Made by a program: the position numbers and the translations under genes. A DNA stretch of 44,636 bases from a virus. The DNA is taken from the UHGV virus genome UHGV-0349104; one strand, written 5' to 3'. The notes beneath the pieces were generated by a model that saw only the letters and a program-made list of their open reading frames with translations, searched no databases and was not told the DNA's origin. Of this stretch, positions 3,258 to 13,745 are shown piece after piece (position 1 is the stretch's first letter; the number at the start of each line of letters is the position of its first letter).

Positions 3258-4667
3258 ATGGCAGTCCAGACGCTTGAACGCGGCATTATGCCCCGCAGGC
3301 AGAATGCCCCAGCGCCAAAGCCCGTCATGGCCTCGGAAGCCCGCGCACAGCTTGAGTCCAGCGTCATTGCCGCGACTCTCTCGGGCATGAACCGGGATGC
3401 CCATTTGCTTGGGGATGTACTTGATATCTGCCCCGCAGGTTGTTTTGTGACGCCGGAAGCTGCGCCGCTTGCCGTGGCTCTCGATTTGCTCCGGCAGTCC
3501 GGTCAACGCCCCAACCTCACCGCGTTGGCAACGCAGATGCAATCCCGTTGGGCGAAAGATCCTGAACTTTGGCCTGCCCCGGATATGGCGCGTATGGCTG
3601 AGCTTTCTACGTCAGCGTGGGGGCTGAAAGGCCATGCCGAGAGTTTGGCCCGAAAGCTTGCCGATGAACATCGCCGGGCGGAACTCCATGCCGGATTGCT
3701 CGAAATTGCTGCGGAAGCATCGGTTTACGGCGTGGACTCCGAATACATCGCTGACCGTGCCCGCAAGCTTGTTGAAGCCTCGGGAGGGATTCAGGAAGCC
3801 GTAACTATGTCGAACATCATGGGCCGCATTCGGGCAAAGCTAGATAATCCGCAATCGCTGCGCAAAGTTCAGACTCCATGGAAAAGCTTGAACAGCGTTT
3901 TGCGTGGGGGATTCATGCCGGGGGAATTGATCGTCCTTGCCGCTCGTCCCGGCCTTGGAAAGACGGCCTTAGCCGCAAATGTGGCGTTGGGTGCCGCATG
4001 GCGCGGAATGGGTGTGCTCTTTGTCTCATGCGAGATGAGCGACGAAAGCCTTGGGCATCGCCTCATCTCCCGTGTAGGGCGTATCGATGGGCGGTTTTTC
4101 CGTGAGGGGATGGGCGTCACGCCGCAGATCCGTGGAGCTATTGACACCGCCATAGGGCAACTTGAAGCCCTCCCCCTGTCCATCGTTGAAAAGTCCACGG
4201 TTCCGATGTGCCCTCGTGAAGTCCGCAGGCTGGCGCGGGGCATCAAGGATTTAGGGCTCATCGTAGTGGACTATCTCCAGCTTTTGCATCCCGACGAGAA
4301 GAGCACCAGCAGAGAACGAGAAGTTGCGGAGATGTCACGTTCCTTTAAGCAAATGGCCCTTGATCTGCAAGTTCCTGTACTCCTGCTTTCTCAGCTTAAC
4401 CGCTCAAGCGAAGAAGGCAAGCGGGAACCCCGTGTTTCCGATCTCAGAGAGTCTGGAGCGATTGAGCAGGACGCGGACATCATCATTTTGCTGCACACCC
4501 GCGATCTGGACAGGGCTGATGCCAGACCAGACGTGAAATGCATCGTCGGGAAATCCCGCAGCACGGGAACAGGTGCATCGTTCTTGCGTTTCGAAAAAGC
4601 TTTTTCTGAGTTTACCGAGGGTGAAGCATGGGCCGGACGTCCTGCGGTACAGGAAAACGATTTGTGA
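3258..4667 (+). CDS. dnaB: replicative DNA helicase, DnaB family
   Basis: Walker A ARPGLGKTALAANV; DnaB C-domain-like VVDYLQLLHP...LLLSQLNR; start ATG 3258 behind RBS GGGAGGTGG. Confidence 0.85.
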   Translation: MAVQTLERGIMPRRQNAPAPKPVMASEARAQLESSVIAATLSGMNRDAHLLGDVLDICPAGCFVTPEAAPLAVALDLLRQSGQRPNLTALATQMQSRWAKDPELWPAPDMARMAELSTSAWGLKGHAESLARKLADEHRRAELHAGLLEIAAEASVYGVDSEYIADRARKLVEASGGIQEAVTMSNIMGRIRAKLDNPQSLRKVQTPWKSLNSVLRGGFMPGELIVLAARPGLGKTALAANVALGAAWRGMGVLFVSCEMSDESLGHRLISRVGRIDGRFFREGMGVTPQIRGAIDTAIGQLEALPLSIVEKSTVPMCPREVRRLARGIKDLGLIVVDYLQLLHPDEKSTSREREVAEMSRSFKQMALDLQVPVLLLSQLNRSSEEGKREPRVSDLRESGAIEQDADIIILLHTRDLDRADARPDVKCIVGKSRSTGTGASFLRFEKAFSEFTEGEAWAGRPAVQENDL

Positions 4668-4738
4668 TGTGCCCACGGTACTGTGAAATCTTCGGCCCCG
4701 GAGCGTGTGCAGGGGTGTTTGACGAAAAGGAGTGTGTG

Positions 4739-5158
4739 ATGAGCACGTACAGGGAAGAATCGTTGCCGGAAACACTGCAAGACATGTCCGACCGTTTCGG
4801 AAAGCCCTTTGTCCGGCACATGATTGAACGCTTCGCGGGTATAACTCTTATTATTCCCGCCAAAAGCCGGAAGACGCAGCTAACTCGGGAATTGTGCGCC
4901 TTCTTGGGGCAGGATGCCCTTTCCGACTTTCTGCACACCTATGGCGGTACGAGAATCTATATCCCCACTTTGCGCCGGGCGAAGATCCGCGCACGGGACA
5001 TGGACATCAACGCCGAGCGGGACGAGTTGGCTCGTAAGGGGCTGAGTGAAAGAGCGCTTGTCGCCAGGCTCGCCACGCTGCACGGGCTTTCCGAACGGCA
5101 GGTGTGGCGCATTTTAAAACAGCCGAGAACCTCGGACAACAGGAAGGCGGCGTTATGA
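4739..5158 (+). CDS. Mor/C family phage transcriptional activator
   Basis: Signature FLHTYGGTRIYIPT (GG..hYhP) and C-terminal HTH; start chosen at ATG 4739 with RBS AAGGAG. Confidence 0.55.
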   Translation: MSTYREESLPETLQDMSDRFGKPFVRHMIERFAGITLIIPAKSRKTQLTRELCAFLGQDALSDFLHTYGGTRIYIPTLRRAKIRARDMDINAERDELARKGLSERALVARLATLHGLSERQVWRILKQPRTSDNRKAAL

Positions 5159-8192: not shown

Positions 8193-8721
8193 TTGGGAAT
8201 CCATCCGGGCCGAGTACGAAGTGGGGGCGAGCCAGTCCGATCTGTCCAAGCGGTACGGTGTGAGCCGGACGGCCATCCAGAAGCGCATCCGGGCCGAAGG
8301 CTGGGTGCAGGATATTTCCGGCACCGTGAACCGCATGGCGGAGGCCAAGGTTGCGGGCGTGGTTGCAGGCTGCAACACTCAAAAAAAGGCCGAAGCCCTG
8401 AACCGCGCCGCCGAAGCCAAGGCCGCCGTCATCACCCGCCACCAGCGGGAGTGGGATCGGCATCAGGCCCTCATTGATGAGGCGTTGTCCCTGGGCAGCT
8501 TCGAGAAGGCCAAGCTCGCCAAGATCACCGCCGAGACGATCAAGATCAGGCAGGAATGTGAGCGTAAGGTGTGGGGCATCGTGGACAAGGCCGCAGTGGA
8601 TCATACGTCGTCCGACGGCTCCATGTCTCCGCGTCCGGTCGATCTCTCTCGTCTTTCCCCGGATGAGCTGCTCCGGCTGACGCGGGAGGCGTTCAGGGAG
8701 ACGGGGCGGGATGGCGGGTGA
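8176..8721 (+). CDS. terS: terminase small subunit
   Basis: N-terminal HTH (QSDLSKRYGVSRTAIQKRIR), coiled middle; overlaps terminase large subunit start. Confidence 0.55.
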   Translation: MAARFDWESIRAEYEVGASQSDLSKRYGVSRTAIQKRIRAEGWVQDISGTVNRMAEAKVAGVVAGCNTQKKAEALNRAAEAKAAVITRHQREWDRHQALIDEALSLGSFEKAKLAKITAETIKIRQECERKVWGIVDKAAVDHTSSDGSMSPRPVDLSRLSPDELLRLTREAFRETGRDGG

Positions 8722-11700
8722 AGTGCTTGCGGAAATCCGCCGCGCGCTGGCCCGGAGCTGTCTCGCGGCCTTTGTGCGCTACACCATGCCCGGCTACCGC
8801 ATGGGCTGGGTGCACGAGGAAATCTGTTCCGAGCTGGATGCCTTCCTTGCCGACGTCGTAGCCGGGCGTTCCCCGCGCCTCATGCTGACCATGCCGCCCC
8901 GCCACGGGAAAAGCGAGCTGGCCTCCCGCCGCTTCCCGGCCTACGCCTTGGGCCGCTATCCCGATCTATCCGTCATTTCAACGAGCTACGCCGCCGACCT
9001 GTCCTCGCGCATGAACCGCGACGTTCAGCGCGTCATCGACAGTCCGGAATACCGGGAACTCTTCCCGGGAACAGCCCTTTACGGCAAGAATATCCGCACC
9101 GTGGGGAACGGTTCCTACCTCCGCAACTCGGATATATTCGAGGTAGTGGGGCACGCTGGATGCTACCGTTCCGCTGGCGTGGGCGGCGGCATCACGGGCA
9201 TGGGTGCGGAATGCGTTGTCATTGGAACACAAATTGCGACTCCTGACGGAGATCGCGCTATCGAGACCCTACAAGTCGGGGATAACGTGCTATCATACAA
9301 TCATCAAACGGGGGAAATTGAAACTGATATAGTGATAGCGGTAAAGGATCGATATGCAGAAGAAAGCTACCGATTACGCGATGCCCTTGGCAGAGTTCTT
9401 GAAGTTACAGGAAACCATCCGATCTTTTCACGGGGGGAATATACCCCTGCATCATCAATTGCCACGGGTGATCCTATCTTGTGCCTGGTGTGGCCTGGAG
9501 TTTGTGAGGCCGGCTTATGTGGTGGCCAAAAATATCAGGAAGGGGATGAAAGATTTCTACTGCTGCAAGGAACATTCTTGTGCCCATCATGCAGTCAAGA
9601 ACAGCAAGACGTGCCCCGGTTGTGGACGGATCATCAAACACACAGGGAGAACCAAAGGGGCAAAGACCTGCCCGGAATGTGCCGCAAAATTCAAGAAGCC
9701 GAGCCAGGTCCCTGTCGAGCATCAGCCCAGAGAAAAAATTTGCCCTATCTGCAACAAGCTCTTTATGTCTGCCCACAGGGGACGCGGTATTTTTGCCAAG
9801 TATTGCAGCAAGCGGTGCAGCGAAATTGCACACTCTATTCTGATGTCTGGCAAGGGGAATCCCCGATACCGTCACGGCATGACTCCCTTGCGGGAACAGG
9901 TGCACTCTGCGCGGGCATTCCGACAGTTTCGGCCTTTGATTTTAGACAGGGATCAGCATCGTTGTGTTCTATGTGGCAAGGAGGAAACACGGTTGGAGGT
10001 TCATCACATGGATCTTATTCCGATCAACAATGTTGCGACAAACTTGATTACGCTGTGCAGCAAGTGCCACAGGATCTTGCACGGCATGAAAGAAGAACAG
10101 TACAAGCGGGACATATTGCCAACATTGCGCGAATATACGGAACAGCACGCCGTTTTGTTGATATCCAAGTAGCACGTAATCAGAACTTCTTTGCCGGCGG
10201 TGTCCTTGTCCACAACTGCGCTATCATCGACGACCCATTCAAAGATCGGGCGTCCGCCGATTCCCCGACCATCCGCCAGAACGTCTGGGACTGGTACACG
10301 TCCACGTTGTACACGCGCCTCGCGCCCGGTGGAGGGGTGCTCATCATCAACACTCGCTGGCACATGGCTGACCTTTCCGGGCGGCTGCTTGAGGCCGCCG
10401 CACGGGGGGAGGGCGACCACTGGCGCGTGGTAAACTTCCCGGCCATCGCCACGGAGGATGAGCCGCACCGCAAGGCAGGTGAAGCCTTACACCCTGAACG
10501 CTACCCGTTGGAGCAGCTTCTTGCCATCAAGAAAGCCCTCGGCACACGCGACTGGGAGGCCCTGTACCAGCAGCGGCCTACGCCAGACGGCGGCGCCATC
10601 TTCAAATCCGAGTGGCTGCGGTTCTGGCTCCCCAAAGACCTGCCGGAGCAGTTCGACCAGCTCCTTATCTCGTGGGATATGACGTTCAAGGACGGCGACG
10701 ATACCGACTTTGTTGTGGGGCAGGTGTGGGGCCGCAAGGGGGCAGACCGCTACCTCCTCGATCAGGTCCGGCGGCGCATGGGATTTACGGACACGGTCGC
10801 CGCGTTCCGGGAGCTCGCCGCCAAATGGCCCGGCGCAACCCGCAAGCTGGTGGAAGACAAGGCCAACGGCCCGGCGGTCATCGACGCGCTGAAACATGCC
10901 GTGCCCGGTATCATCCCCGTGGAGCCGGACGGCAGCAAGACGGCTCGCGCCCATGCTGTGACTACGTTCTTCGAGGCCGGGAACGTCCTGCTCCCGCACC
11001 CTGAGCATTGCCCGTGGGCGCGGGAGTACGTCGCGGAACTGACACAGTTCCCCGGTGCGCCCCACGACGATCAATGTTTTGCTGCAGGCACTTTAGTTGC
11101 GACTTTGCGAGGGGGTATCCCAATTGAAAAAGTAAAGGAAGGTGATTTTGTTGTGACTCCTCAAGGGTTTAGGCGTGTGTTGTTCGCTGGAAAAACCGGA
11201 GAGTCTGTGTTATTGTATCGACATGGAATTTTTGCAACTGCGAATCATCCGTTCATGAAAACCAGTGGAGAAGTTTGCAAATTTGCAGAAATAGAAAAGT
11301 CTGAACTTGTTCACATGACTATAAGGGAGTTGCTAGTATGGATATTCCGAAAAGAGTTGAATTTAATGGCGTCACCTATGCCCTCATGGCAGGGGGGAAA
11401 TACTATCTTAGTCAGTCAAAAACAAACGCAGGTAGGAAAAATCCGAAGGGGCTTCATGTCGCTATTTGGGAATACTACAGTGGCAAGAAAGTCCCTAAAG
11501 GGTATGAGATTCATCACAAAGATGGTAATACACATAACAACAATTTTGACAACCTTGAGTGTTTATCACGTTGTGAACACCGCAAAACGGTTAAGCAAAA
11601 CAAAGAAAAATGCCGTAAGCACCTTGAAGAAGTACGCCCTCTTGCTACTGAGTGGCACAGGAGCGAAGAAGGCCGTGCATGGCATCGAGAGCAAAGCAGG

Positions 11701-12139
11701 AAGGCATACGCAAAAAGAGAGTATACTGAGCATGTTTGTGAGTACTGCGGCAAGACGTATAAAACGCGCCATACGGGAAAAAACCGCTTCTGTTCCCATA
11801 ATTGTGAAATCAAATGGCGATATCACAATGAATACGAGCTTGCCGAGGGTGTGTGCCAATGGTGCGGCAAACCGTTCACATACAAGACCGGAACCTGCAG
11901 AAAAAACAAAGTACGTAAATTCTGCAGCAAGTCTTGCAGCACAAGCCACTTCAACGCCCAACGCCGTGCCAGTGTATAACCTCACCGTAGAGGGCGAGCA
12001 CCTTTATTTTGCTAATGGGGTGCTCGTCCACAATTGTGACGCCACCACTCAGGCCCTCCGCGACTTCGACGCCAAACGCCCCATGTCTATCAATCCTGCT
12101 ATCCTCACTCAACCACGTATAGGGTATCGCTTCCGGTAA
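8711..12139 (+). CDS. terL: terminase large subunit precursor carrying two inteins
   Basis: N-terminal ATPase (MPPRHGKSE Walker A-like, IIDDPF Walker B region) and C-terminal nuclease region; 1142-aa ORF leaves about 487 aa of extein after removing the two inteins. Confidence 0.8.
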   Translation: MAGEVLAEIRRALARSCLAAFVRYTMPGYRMGWVHEEICSELDAFLADVVAGRSPRLMLTMPPRHGKSELASRRFPAYALGRYPDLSVISTSYAADLSSRMNRDVQRVIDSPEYRELFPGTALYGKNIRTVGNGSYLRNSDIFEVVGHAGCYRSAGVGGGITGMGAECVVIGTQIATPDGDRAIETLQVGDNVLSYNHQTGEIETDIVIAVKDRYAEESYRLRDALGRVLEVTGNHPIFSRGEYTPASSIATGDPILCLVWPGVCEAGLCGGQKYQEGDERFLLLQGTFLCPSCSQEQQDVPRLWTDHQTHRENQRGKDLPGMCRKIQEAEPGPCRASAQRKNLPYLQQALYVCPQGTRYFCQVLQQAVQRNCTLYSDVWQGESPIPSRHDSLAGTGALCAGIPTVSAFDFRQGSASLCSMWQGGNTVGGSSHGSYSDQQCCDKLDYAVQQVPQDLARHERRTVQAGHIANIARIYGTARRFVDIQVARNQNFFAGGVLVHNCAIIDDPFKDRASADSPTIRQNVWDWYTSTLYTRLAPGGGVLIINTRWHMADLSGRLLEAAARGEGDHWRVVNFPAIATEDEPHRKAGEALHPERYPLEQLLAIKKALGTRDWEALYQQRPTPDGGAIFKSEWLRFWLPKDLPEQFDQLLISWDMTFKDGDDTDFVVGQVWGRKGADRYLLDQVRRRMGFTDTVAAFRELAAKWPGATRKLVEDKANGPAVIDALKHAVPGIIPVEPDGSKTARAHAVTTFFEAGNVLLPHPEHCPWAREYVAELTQFPGAPHDDQCFAAGTLVATLRGGIPIEKVKEGDFVVTPQGFRRVLFAGKTGESVLLYRHGIFATANHPFMKTSGEVCKFAEIEKSELVHMTIRELLVWIFRKELNLMASPMPSWQGGNTILVSQKQTQVGKIRRGFMSLFGNTTVARKSLKGMRFITKMVIHITTILTTLSVYHVVNTAKRLSKTKKNAVSTLKKYALLLLSGTGAKKAVHGIESKAGRHTQKESILSMFVSTAARRIKRAIREKTASVPIIVKSNGDITMNTSLPRVCANGAANRSHTRPEPAEKTKYVNSAASLAAQATSTPNAVPVYNLTVEGEHLYFANGVLVHNCDATTQALRDFDAKRPMSINPAILTQPRIGYRFR
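9212..10216 (+). mobile_element. intein 1 in terL
   Basis: N-terminal Cys (CVVIGTQIATPDG), block B VTGNHPIF, C-terminal GGVLVHN followed by Cys+1; inserted between GMGAE and CAIIDDPF. Confidence 0.75.
9354..10172 (+). CDS. free-standing HNH endonuclease with zinc ribbons, alternate frame inside intein 1
   Basis: HNH motif RLEVHHMDLIPINNVATNLITLCSKCH; repeated Cys ribbons; ends 4 nt before intein C-terminal block; true start may lie downstream of 9354. Confidence 0.65.
   Translation: MQKKATDYAMPLAEFLKLQETIRSFHGGNIPLHHQLPRVILSCAWCGLEFVRPAYVVAKNIRKGMKDFYCCKEHSCAHHAVKNSKTCPGCGRIIKHTGRTKGAKTCPECAAKFKKPSQVPVEHQPREKICPICNKLFMSAHRGRGIFAKYCSKRCSEIAHSILMSGKGNPRYRHGMTPLREQVHSARAFRQFRPLILDRDQHRCVLCGKEETRLEVHHMDLIPINNVATNLITLCSKCHRILHGMKEEQYKRDILPTLREYTEQHAVLLISK
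11075..12034 (+). mobile_element. intein 2 in terL
   Basis: Begins CFAAGTLVATL, block B TANHPFM, ends YFANGVLVHN plus Cys+1; AT-rich interior. Confidence 0.75.
11338..11979 (+). CDS. free-standing HNH endonuclease with zinc ribbons, alternate frame inside intein 2
   Basis: N-terminal NGVTYALMAGGKYYLSQ..GYEIHHKDGNTHNNNFDNLE (HNH_3-like), then CEYCG..FCSHNCE and CQWCG..FCSKSCS ribbons; own RBS AAGGGAG. Confidence 0.7.
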   Translation: MDIPKRVEFNGVTYALMAGGKYYLSQSKTNAGRKNPKGLHVAIWEYYSGKKVPKGYEIHHKDGNTHNNNFDNLECLSRCEHRKTVKQNKEKCRKHLEEVRPLATEWHRSEEGRAWHREQSRKAYAKREYTEHVCEYCGKTYKTRHTGKNRFCSHNCEIKWRYHNEYELAEGVCQWCGKPFTYKTGTCRKNKVRKFCSKSCSTSHFNAQRRASV

Positions 12140-12144
12140 ACTCC

Positions 12145-12161
12145 GAACCTTGTTCACGGTG
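12145..12161 (+). promoter_or_regulatory. conserved boundary motif GAACCTTGTTCACGGTG (copy 2)
   Basis: 6 nt after terL stop and 34 nt before portal start. Confidence 0.5.
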
Positions 12162-12194
12162 TAAATTCTTCTTCGCTCATAGCATGATGCCCTC

Positions 12195-13745
12195 ATGAGC
12201 AAGAAGCGCACTTATCGCAACGCTACCTCCATAGCCCCGCAAGCCGTGCAGCCGTCGCGCCGTCTGAATCTCTCCCCGGGCGTGCGTGACGGCCTTGCTC
12301 AGCCTTTGCCCCTTACGCCCGACGACATCAGCCGGATGTACGGTCCTGCGAAGACGCTCGGCGCGCCCGAAGAAGTGCAGCTTGCAATGGACGCACAGCT
12401 TGCGGATTCCGGCGTCTATTCCCTGCTCCAGCATTCGCTTGAACTTGGCGTAGGCATCGCCCCGCAGTTCATGGGCTATGGCGTCCTCCAGAACCTCGCT
12501 CAGAACGGCTTGATCCGCGCTTGCGTCGAGACGGTATCGGACGACATGACCCGCGTGTGGATTGACTTCAAGCGTGAAGGGGAGGGCGGCGATGACTCAT
12601 TGCTCACCGACCTCGCGCAAACGTGCAAGACGTTCGGGCTCCAACGTCTTTTCCATGAAGCGACGGAACTTGTGGGCTATGAGGGCGGGGCCTTCCTTTT
12701 CATCGACACGGGGGCCATTGGCCAGGAGCTGGAACGCCCTCTGAACATCGGCCCGTACTCGGCCGAACTGCAACCCGGGGCCCCGTTGCGTTTCGTCGTC
12801 ATCGACCCGGTGAATGTCTTCCCCGGGGACTACAACAGTCTTTCGCCGCTGGAACCAGACTATTTCCGTCCCCACTGGTGGTGGGTGCTCGGACAGCGTG
12901 TGCATGCTTCCCGTCTCATCCGGCTGGTGGCCAACGAGTGTCCCGTGCTGCTGCGGCCCGCCTACAACTTTCTGGGGATTCCACAGGCGCAGATTCTCTG
13001 GGATTACGTGCTGCACTTTCAGGAGTGCCGCGCAGCCGAATCCCGGCTCCTGACCAAGTTCTCGCTGACCGTCTTCAAGACGAAGATGGAAGACATCCTG
13101 TATGCGGCTGGGGGCACGGCGCAGCTTGATGCCCGCATCCGGTACATGATCCAGTCCATGACGAATGACGGCGTACTTGCCGTGGACAAAGAGACGGAAG
13201 AGGTGGTGAAGCTGGAAACGCCGCTTTCCGGCGTGACCGACATCGTGCGCCAGTCCCTTGAAATCCTCGCCGCCTTGAACCGTACCCCGGCGGTCAAGCT
13301 GCTCGGCATCAGCCCCTCAGGTTTCAACGCCACGGGCGAATCGGACATCCGCAACTATTACGACCACGTGAGGAGCCAGCAGGAGAAGGTGCTCCGCGAC
13401 GGCATCAAGAAGGCGCTTGATTGTCTTCAGCTTCACCTGCGCGGGGAGATCGATCCGTCCGTGACCTTCGACTTCGCGCCGCTCGGCGAAAAGGACAGGG
13501 CGGCCCTTGCCATGCTCCAGAAGACCAAGGCCGACACCATCGCCGTCTACACGGATCGGGACATCATCTCTCAGGAAGAAGCCCGGCAATCACTTGCCAG
13601 CGACCCGGACAGCGGCTTCTCGGACATTGACCCAGCGGAAGTGCCGCAGGGCAACGGAATGCCTGACGCACTGCCGGAAGCCGGGGAAGAGGGCTTGATG
13701 CCCGACATCGACGATGTGGACAAGGCAGGGGCCGTCTATGGCTAA
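12195..13745 (+). CDS. portal protein (Mu gp29/DUF935-like)
   Basis: 516 aa immediately after terminase; acidic C-terminus; typical size and position. Confidence 0.6.
   Translation: MSKKRTYRNATSIAPQAVQPSRRLNLSPGVRDGLAQPLPLTPDDISRMYGPAKTLGAPEEVQLAMDAQLADSGVYSLLQHSLELGVGIAPQFMGYGVLQNLAQNGLIRACVETVSDDMTRVWIDFKREGEGGDDSLLTDLAQTCKTFGLQRLFHEATELVGYEGGAFLFIDTGAIGQELERPLNIGPYSAELQPGAPLRFVVIDPVNVFPGDYNSLSPLEPDYFRPHWWWVLGQRVHASRLIRLVANECPVLLRPAYNFLGIPQAQILWDYVLHFQECRAAESRLLTKFSLTVFKTKMEDILYAAGGTAQLDARIRYMIQSMTNDGVLAVDKETEEVVKLETPLSGVTDIVRQSLEILAALNRTPAVKLLGISPSGFNATGESDIRNYYDHVRSQQEKVLRDGIKKALDCLQLHLRGEIDPSVTFDFAPLGEKDRAALAMLQKTKADTIAVYTDRDIISQEEARQSLASDPDSGFSDIDPAEVPQGNGMPDALPEAGEEGLMPDIDDVDKAGAVYG

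Follow-up and report, generated by a model that had tools for sequence, protein, structure and literature searches.

Several cases are known in which the endonuclease gene of an intein lies outside the intein reading frame. The brucellaphages (Tb, Pr, Perisivirus) have a TerL intein with an out-of-frame HNH gene (PMC4422536; NC_019447 gp07/gp08). Actinophage inteins have been found with an endonuclease VII-like gene in 'frame 3', an antisense LAGLIDADG gene or an antisense VSR-like gene, TerL being one of the four types of host protein in which these non-canonical inteins are listed (Gosselin, Arsenault & Gogarten, bioRxiv 10.1101/2025.01.02.630785). The cyanobacterial dnaX intein contains an out-of-frame LAGLIDADG endonuclease, such cases being called a rarity (bioRxiv 10.64898/2026.09.14.751524), and as cited there the arrangement is also credited to Gorbalenya 1998. 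Related layouts are the 'fractured genes' (Dassa et al. 2009, PMC2677866), in which the two halves of a split intein are separated by a free-standing endonuclease gene, and the ShiLan domain, an out-of-frame 'hidden' HNH in a phage DNA methylase (PMC11855218). Here we describe the terminase gene terL of the virus genome UHGV-0349104, a stretch of 44,636 nucleotides that is called the window throughout. This terL carries two inteins, each with an HNH gene nested in another frame. The second one, intein 2, is our main subject, and most probably it is a bicistronic selfish element consisting of a self-splicing intein and a separately initiated homing HNH endonuclease.

Like the brucellaphage TerL intein, intein 2 contains a complete HNH gene on the same strand, nested in another frame. 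It differs in that the enzyme belongs to the HNH_3 family, has its nuclease domain at the N-terminus and is encoded in the -1 frame, and in that the insertion is in the nuclease motif of TerL and not near Walker B. With the actinophage inteins it shares an endonuclease outside the intein frame and an in-frame translation without recognisable structure, and the series of relatives found around intein 2 agrees with the model proposed for them, the invasion of an intein by a free-standing endonuclease gene. However, the endonuclease of intein 2 is of the HNH_3, I-HmuI-like type, and a tblastn search with this protein gave no actinophage matches at E <= 1e-5. The actinophage authors consider such architectures rare, whereas 96 unique nested copies, from Clostridia to archaea, were sampled for the lineage of intein 2.

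The dnaX intein resembles intein 2 in having an overlapping-frame endonuclease under purifying selection with a relaxed host frame, and in its sporadic distribution, with intein-free alleles coexisting with intein-containing ones; there, however, a LAGLIDADG endonuclease is found in a cellular gene, as opposed to an HNH enzyme in a phage terL. The fractured-gene layout is matched exactly by one relative with an endonuclease of the same HNH family as intein 2 (locus L067, described below), but terL in the window is one continuous open reading frame (ORF), and intein 2 is therefore contiguous (cis-splicing) and not split. In ShiLan, as in intein 2, the HNH gene starts just inside the insertion and stops at its end while the host frame remains open. 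No splicing domain is present there, whereas the HNH gene of intein 2 is flanked by complete Hint lobes. The parts of the element are as follows.

8711..12139, plus strand: TerL precursor ORF, 1142 amino acids, with two inteins inside; matches to Terminase_6N, Terminase_6C, Hint_2 and Intein_splicing.
11060..11074, plus strand: predicted homing site, left half; the empty allele reads CCCCACGACGACCAA^GTGGACGCCACAACACAG.
11075..12034, plus strand: intein 2, 320 amino acids, class-1 type, Hint-type; recognised by Hint profiles, sequence blocks and clean insertion relative to the intein-less allele L172.
11075..11344, plus strand: Hint N-terminal lobe with blocks A and B; confident AlphaFold2 fold and Hint_2 match.
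11323..11329, plus strand: Shine-Dalgarno sequence AAGGGAG, 8 nt 5' of the HNH ATG, made by the intein-frame codons I-R-E.
11338..11979, plus strand: nested HNH_3 homing-endonuclease gene, 213 amino acids, in the -1 frame relative to TerL; Pfam HNH_3 (PF13392).
11345..11959, plus strand: read-through linker of intein 2 in the TerL frame, about 205-210 codons, with no stops and no recognisable fold.
11960..12034, plus strand: Hint C-terminal lobe with blocks F and G, VYNLTVEGEHLYFANGVLVHN; predicted fold and sequence blocks.
12035..12037, plus strand: Cys+1 of the C-extein, which is Val in intein-less alleles according to comparison with them.

The sequence-only reading had placed intein 2 and an alternate-frame HNH_3 gene with its own ribosome-binding site in this region, and all of these elements are present where it put them. 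Intein 2 begins with CFAAGTLVAT (Cys1), contains the block B residues T-A-N-H in TANHPFM and ends with GVLVHN followed by Cys+1. The insertion point is the TerL nuclease-domain motif APHDDQ|xDATTQ, the same site being used in 45 aligned TerLs, and the residues C1, T55, H58, H319, N320 and C321 are invariant across the intein relatives (alignment A3). Searched alone, intein 2 scores 28.4 bits with Hint_2, exactly at the cut-off, and E 1.8e-5 with Intein_splicing, which is below the cut-off of that profile; Hint_2 was detected in 35 of the 45 homologous TerLs. AlphaFold2 predicts only the Hint lobes of the TerL-frame product with confidence (residues 1-90 and 296-321, reaching pLDDT 85-91, the range over residues 1-90 being 75-91), with pLDDT below 50 for residues 98-137 and 189-294. 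The stretch without domain-like sequence is thus about 210 codons and not about 290 as first estimated, since the first 90 or so and the last 25 or so residues are Hint domain. The GC content of the interior had likewise been put somewhat too low, at about 42%: it is 44.7% for intein 2 (39-49% locally) compared with 64.6% for the exteins, and by this measure the element looks foreign to the genome.

Comparison with an intein-less allele shows a clean insertion. The allele L172, which encodes the 491 amino acid protein P0267 (standing for 966 member sequences), is about 95% identical to the window in the exteins and aligns with it up to 11074 and then again from 12031, so that 960 bp (320 codons) are inserted at CCCCACGACGAYCAA^GTG(TGT)GACGCC. 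At the protein level the empty allele reads APHDDQ|VDATTQ and the window APHDDQ|C...HN|CDATTQ, a precise in-frame insertion at a conserved host site of the kind that marks an intein; the empty site, as in L172 or L090, is CCCCACGACGACCAAGTGGACGCCACAACACAG. The mature TerL after removal of both inteins is computed to be about 487 amino acids, close to the length of P0267. We infer that intein 2 would be removed by protein splicing, because viable cultured phages carry homologous inteins in terL.

The nested ORF matches Pfam HNH_3 with E 1.3e-15 and 57.1 bits (cut-off 24.8). Its HNH domain is N-terminal and is followed by two CxxCG...FCSxxC zinc ribbons, and the residues H59, H60, N67, N72 and H81 are invariant in 32 homologues. 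AlphaFold2 gives a mean pLDDT of 90.4 for this ORF, and the predicted structure has a His-Me finger fold with I-HmuI (PDB 1u3e), the intron-encoded HNH homing endonuclease of Bacillus phage SPO1, as the closest solved structure. The sequence identity to I-HmuI is 16%, and the DNA-binding part differs in consisting of two YacG-like zinc ribbons. No PDB sequence was matched when the HNH alignment was used as a search profile.

Conserved Hint codons appear to supply both the start and the stop signals of the nested gene, those for K/R-E at the end of the N-lobe providing the Shine-Dalgarno sequence and those for Y-N/D or V-E in block F the stop. AAGGAG-like motifs made by intein-frame K/R-E codons are found at the same place in many related loci. 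The stop codon TAA (11977..11979) falls within block F (VYNLTVEG) and is made by its Y-N codons; judged from the sequence context of the HNH stop codons in 68 unique loci, most have a stop made by the block F codons for Y-N/D (TAT AAY / TAT GAY) or V-E (nnT GAR). Most aligned HNH homologues share the column of the initial Met, and in the window the nearest upstream stop in the HNH frame is only 11 codons 5' of the ATG. A promoter scan gave one promoter-like match overlapping the start codon, not above chance, and a terminator scan of the region found none. These sequence signals suggest that HNH_3 would be made by internal initiation at its own Shine-Dalgarno sequence and ATG, one of the two possibilities raised by the sequence-only reading; the other, frameshifting, fared worse and is considered below.

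Two overlapping open frames might arise by chance. Across intein 2 the TerL frame has 0 stops and the third frame 31, while the HNH frame is open over 11305..11976. The TerL frame stayed open in 0 of 100,000 mononucleotide shuffles of the overlap. In a deliberately conservative null, synonymous shuffles that kept the HNH protein and its codon usage fixed, it remained open in 324 of 20,000 (p about 0.016); the same test on intein 1 gave 0 of 20,000. The decisive evidence against chance is comparative. A profile-guided scan of viral contigs provided 80 loci, among at least 365 IMG/VR stretches with relatives. Matches by tblastn with the HNH protein were also found beneath the annotated TerL of four phages, in all cases -1 relative to the TerL coding sequence: Clostridium phage phiCDHM19, Acinetobacter phage vB_AbaM_Highwayman and Tetrasphaera phage TJE1, which are cultured, and Rhodobacteraceae phage LS06-2018-MD07, an environmental complete genome. 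In 78 of these 84 loci the HNH ORF lies fully inside an ORF of 660-1190 amino acids, and in the 78 enclosed viral loci the frame is -1 in 77 and another frame in one (L057). Among full-length relatives on contigs from genomes or metagenome-assembled genomes (MAGs), the same -1 nesting is found in 32 of 50; the source organisms include Sutterella, Nostoc, Clostridia, Mycobacterium, Bacteroides, Patescibacteria and several archaea. Deduplication left 117 unique relatives, which are divided by the state of the host frame.

Nested in the -1 arrangement (n=96, GC 27-66%): the host (+1) frame has 0 stops in every gene; the third frame has a mean of 19.7.
Not nested in that frame (n=21): the host (+1) frame has 2-13 stops per gene; the third frame is variable.

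The enclosing ORFs are TerLs of several Pfam terminase families (Terminase_6, Terminase_3, T7-type) with Hint domains, and the common site reads ...HDDx|CFVxGT...VYNLxVE...LVHN|CDA... A census of the HNH family by profile search of 1.84 billion cluster representatives gave 994 clusters at E <= 1e-30. Nearly all of the best 150 are 170-300 amino acids long, and no in-frame fusion to Hint or terminase was evident among these 150 from their length and match pattern; two long clusters (1662 and 1134 amino acids) match only through many repeats of the zinc-ribbon part of the profile. The PF13392 domain is absent from the intein-containing TerL matches in the database.

Substitutions between nested HNH genes fall mainly at the third position of HNH codons. 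For pairs with 95-100% identical HNH proteins the differences per site at HNH codon positions 1, 2 and 3 are 0.006, 0.006 and 0.028, and for pairs with 70-85% identity they are 0.20, 0.15 and 0.46. HNH codon position 3 is position 2 of the TerL frame, where any change alters the TerL-frame amino acid. Over 45 loci HNH and the Hint lobes each have a mean identity of 39%, compared with 21% when the HNH DNA is translated in the host frame and 17% for the exteins. On these comparisons the HNH frame is under protein-level constraint, and the TerL frame in the overlap would need only to stay open. The intein and its HNH gene likewise behave as a unit that is, judged by identity, far more conserved than the host terminases. 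The argument that the architecture is selected and not an artefact, based earlier on seeing the pattern twice, has thus gained support from the 96 unique nested loci, the constraint on the HNH frame, the agreement of five assemblies and the clean insertion.

The inteins of this terL vary in presence among near-identical phages. Relatives that are about 95-97% identical in the exteins carry all four combinations of intein 1 and intein 2, and some also have a third intein.

Window: LAGLIDADG intein (Walker A) absent, intein 1 present, intein 2 present.
L029: LAGLIDADG intein (Walker A) present, intein 1 absent, intein 2 present.
L090: LAGLIDADG intein (Walker A) present, intein 1 present, intein 2 absent.
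L172 / P0267: LAGLIDADG intein (Walker A) absent, intein 1 absent, intein 2 absent.

The LAGLIDADG intein of the relatives (L029:1284-4799, L090:2290-5823) is canonical and in-frame and lies in Walker A (GK|LCADD...THN|SELASRR); the counterpart of this site in the window, PPRHGK|SELASRR at 8911/8912, is uninterrupted. Because close relatives have different sets, one terL lineage contains three independently segregating inteins. In intein 2 the window and L029 have no mismatches over 960 nt, compared with 16 of 852 in upstream terL and 105 of 966 in the portal gene, which suggests, from sequence identity, recent gene conversion. The 3' extein and intergenic DNA at 12035..12218 is also identical in these two but only about 84% identical to the intein-less allele, and this stretch may be a co-conversion tract accompanying intein 2.

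Other relatives represent different states of the same HNH family. In L099, L109 and L118 the HNH frame is broken (open for 13-31 codons at the match) while the host frame of 783-824 amino acids is intact; they look like decaying endonuclease genes within intact inteins, an expected stage of the homing cycle. The family is found free-standing directly 3' of an intein-less terL in L037, L039, L072 and L075. In L067 (2461-4806) the layout is that of a split intein: TerL-IntN ends at 4014, the HNH gene is at 3995-4600, and an ORF of 82 amino acids at 4558-4806, in the same frame as the N-terminal part, encodes IntC and the C-extein. Nesting in the other frame is found in L057 and L127, -1 nesting being the majority. 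Only about 105 nt of terL follow the intein 2 site, so that an endonuclease gene standing free just downstream of terL is a near neighbour of this site. The series would fit the model of an intein invaded by such a free-standing gene (Dassa et al. 2009, PMC2677866; Gosselin et al. 2025).

Taken together, the proposed mechanism would be as follows. An HNH_3 (I-HmuI-like) gene would fill the loop where canonical inteins have an in-frame endonuclease domain. Ribosomes translating terL would read through it in the TerL frame and produce an unstructured linker of about 205 residues, the sole requirement of which would be the lack of stop codons, and the flanking Hint lobes would splice out the whole intein of 320 residues and ligate TerL. 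Internal initiation (Shine-Dalgarno sequence at 11323, ATG at 11338) would give an HNH enzyme of 213 residues that might cut or nick intein-less terL in co-infecting relatives at or near CCCCACGACGAYCAA^GTGGACGCC, a target site predicted from the empty allele. Repair of the cut allele would copy the intein together with the HNH gene, which is homing.

Four observations weigh against this view of intein 2 as a homing, bicistronic element. With the HNH gene of the window alone, the synonymous-shuffle test gives only p about 0.016. HNH identity correlates with extein identity (rho 0.64), and much of the inheritance is therefore vertical or local. About half of the related loci are without a recognisable Shine-Dalgarno sequence in a simple scan, so the initiation mechanism may differ between hosts. 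Finally, the identity of intein 2 between two diverged phages could in part come from double-frame constraint and not from recent transfer.

Of the other explanations, the one that survives best, although unlikely, is that the HNH protein is not a homing enzyme but an accessory nuclease that the terminase needs for packaging, like the HNH proteins of HK97 gp74 type whose genes are neighbours of terminase genes, and is nested in terL for co-expression. The idea was raised for the brucellaphages (PMC4422536), and free-standing relatives do lie directly 3' of intein-less terL. However, this HNH is missing from terL in the near-identical L090 and L172/P0267, where site 2 is uninterrupted. An HNH_3 protein with an I-HmuI-like fold is also not of the small PF01844 packaging type, and the broken HNH frames within open host frames in L099, L109 and L118 are the decay expected of a selfish gene.

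It is still less probable that the HNH protein is made by programmed -1 frameshifting, either as a fusion of N-extein, Hint N-lobe and HNH or, after a second shift, as an in-frame endonuclease of the intein. Nearly all loci do have the HNH gene in the -1 frame, and the commonest programmed frameshifts go in this direction; there is also a G_GGA_AAT heptamer at 11395. However, this heptamer is not conserved and falls within the conserved N-terminus of HNH, 19 codons in, and the permissive stretch left by the HNH-frame stop upstream of the ATG contains no slippery heptamer. Frameshifting is also unsupported because -1 slippery heptamers are not enriched, being present in 6 of 76 unique loci compared with about 9 expected. 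The RNA fold of 11290..11370 around the HNH start is no better than that of shuffled sequences (z = 0.52), so no stable structure is predicted there, the shared Met column and the many Shine-Dalgarno sequences of the homologues argue for initiation, and in L057 and L127 the gene is in the other frame.

That the insertion is a group I or II intron with an HNH ORF, removed from the RNA and with an incidentally open TerL frame, is hardly credible: HNH genes are common in phage introns and the RefSeq note on the brucellaphage homologue of the intein 1 HNH says 'intron-encoded', but no Rfam intron or other RNA family was found in 8600..12300 at E <= 1, the insertion is bounded by Hint blocks of canonical type, with Cys1, TxxH, HN and Cys+1 unchanged in all relatives compared, its length is a multiple of three, and 96 unique loci keep the host frame open, for which an intron would have no need. 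Equally implausible is a dead or mis-assembled terL with a double open frame by accident of composition or sequencing; on related contigs public gene callers do overlook the TerL ORF, giving HNH and spurious antisense ORFs in its place, but the 960 bp of intein 2 are 99.5-100% identical and gap-free in five independent assemblies from different samples, the same arrangement is found in cultured phages, none of the 100,000 shuffles kept the frame open and the catalytic Hint residues are conserved.

Intein 1 of the same terL also has a nested HNH gene.

9212..10216, plus strand: intein 1, 335 amino acids, just before Walker B (GITGMGAE|C...HN|CAIIDDP); the site is empty in L029 and P0267.
9354..10172, plus strand: nested HNH gene of intein 1, 272 amino acids, +1 frame; PF01844 HNH at the C-terminus and zinc ribbons at the N-terminus.

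AAAGGA is found 5 nt 5' of the ATG of this gene, and its product shares 43% identity with the HNH that is nested, likewise in the +1 frame, in the TerL of all brucellaphages. The brucellaphage homologues came from tblastn of cultured phages, and a single-sequence search of viral contigs with the intein 1 HNH gave one identical locus only. The sequence-only reading had described the same ribbons in both HNH proteins. The zinc-ribbon motif is indeed common to them, but it is the only part in common (BLASTP E 0.005), and the two proteins come from separate Pfam families, with their domains in opposite order, and are encoded in different frames (+1 and -1). In intein 1 only 47 codons precede the HNH start, block B (TGNHPIF) being at about 9407, and the first 20-45 or so codons of this HNH gene therefore overlap the structured N-lobe of Hint; the overlap in intein 1 is true dual coding of two folded regions. 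The HNH gene of intein 2, unlike that of intein 1, starts right after the N-lobe.

The HNH_3 endonuclease of intein 2, with its PF13392 domain, its lack of actinophage matches and a likeness to the intein 1 HNH that goes no further than motifs, thus belongs to none of the described lineages. No literature report was found of an HNH_3 lineage in the -1 frame of TerL, and in the phage records inspected the HNH_3 gene is unannotated beneath TerL or annotated as stand-alone. This lineage appears to be undescribed, and it is notable for being so widespread and so strictly out-of-frame. Out-of-frame intein endonucleases have already been reported, and our observations are therefore an extension and not the discovery of a new kind.

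The public gene calls for L085 and L086 omit the TerL precursor and give nested HNH genes and spurious antisense ORFs. L086 (6183-9485), a near-identical relative, differs from the window (12140..13745) also in that an additional P22_AR_N (antirepressor-like) gene separates terL from the portal gene, and the portal protein of L086 is 758 amino acids with an LPD3 domain compared with 516 amino acids in the window. Terminases with the nested-HNH architecture are probably systematically under-annotated, and recognising the architecture corrects phage annotation, as standard gene callers miss an essential terminase gene.

The arrangement also shows that a Hint domain can accommodate in its insertion loop an essentially arbitrary stretch of about 200 residues. 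One endonuclease family that is found free-standing, in a split intein and nested in either frame provides material for a test of the hypothesis that the splicing element comes first and the endonuclease invades later. The HNH_3 family might even be an obligately out-of-frame lineage of intein endonucleases that is old and stable and ranks with the most frequent types of TerL intein in bacterial and archaeal viruses, a proposal that we make tentatively and with slightly less than even confidence. If it is true, the free-standing, split and nested relatives would be a living series for the acquisition of endonucleases by inteins, and overlapping-frame nesting would be a long-lived, co-adapted solution and not the rare transient intermediate assumed in current papers.

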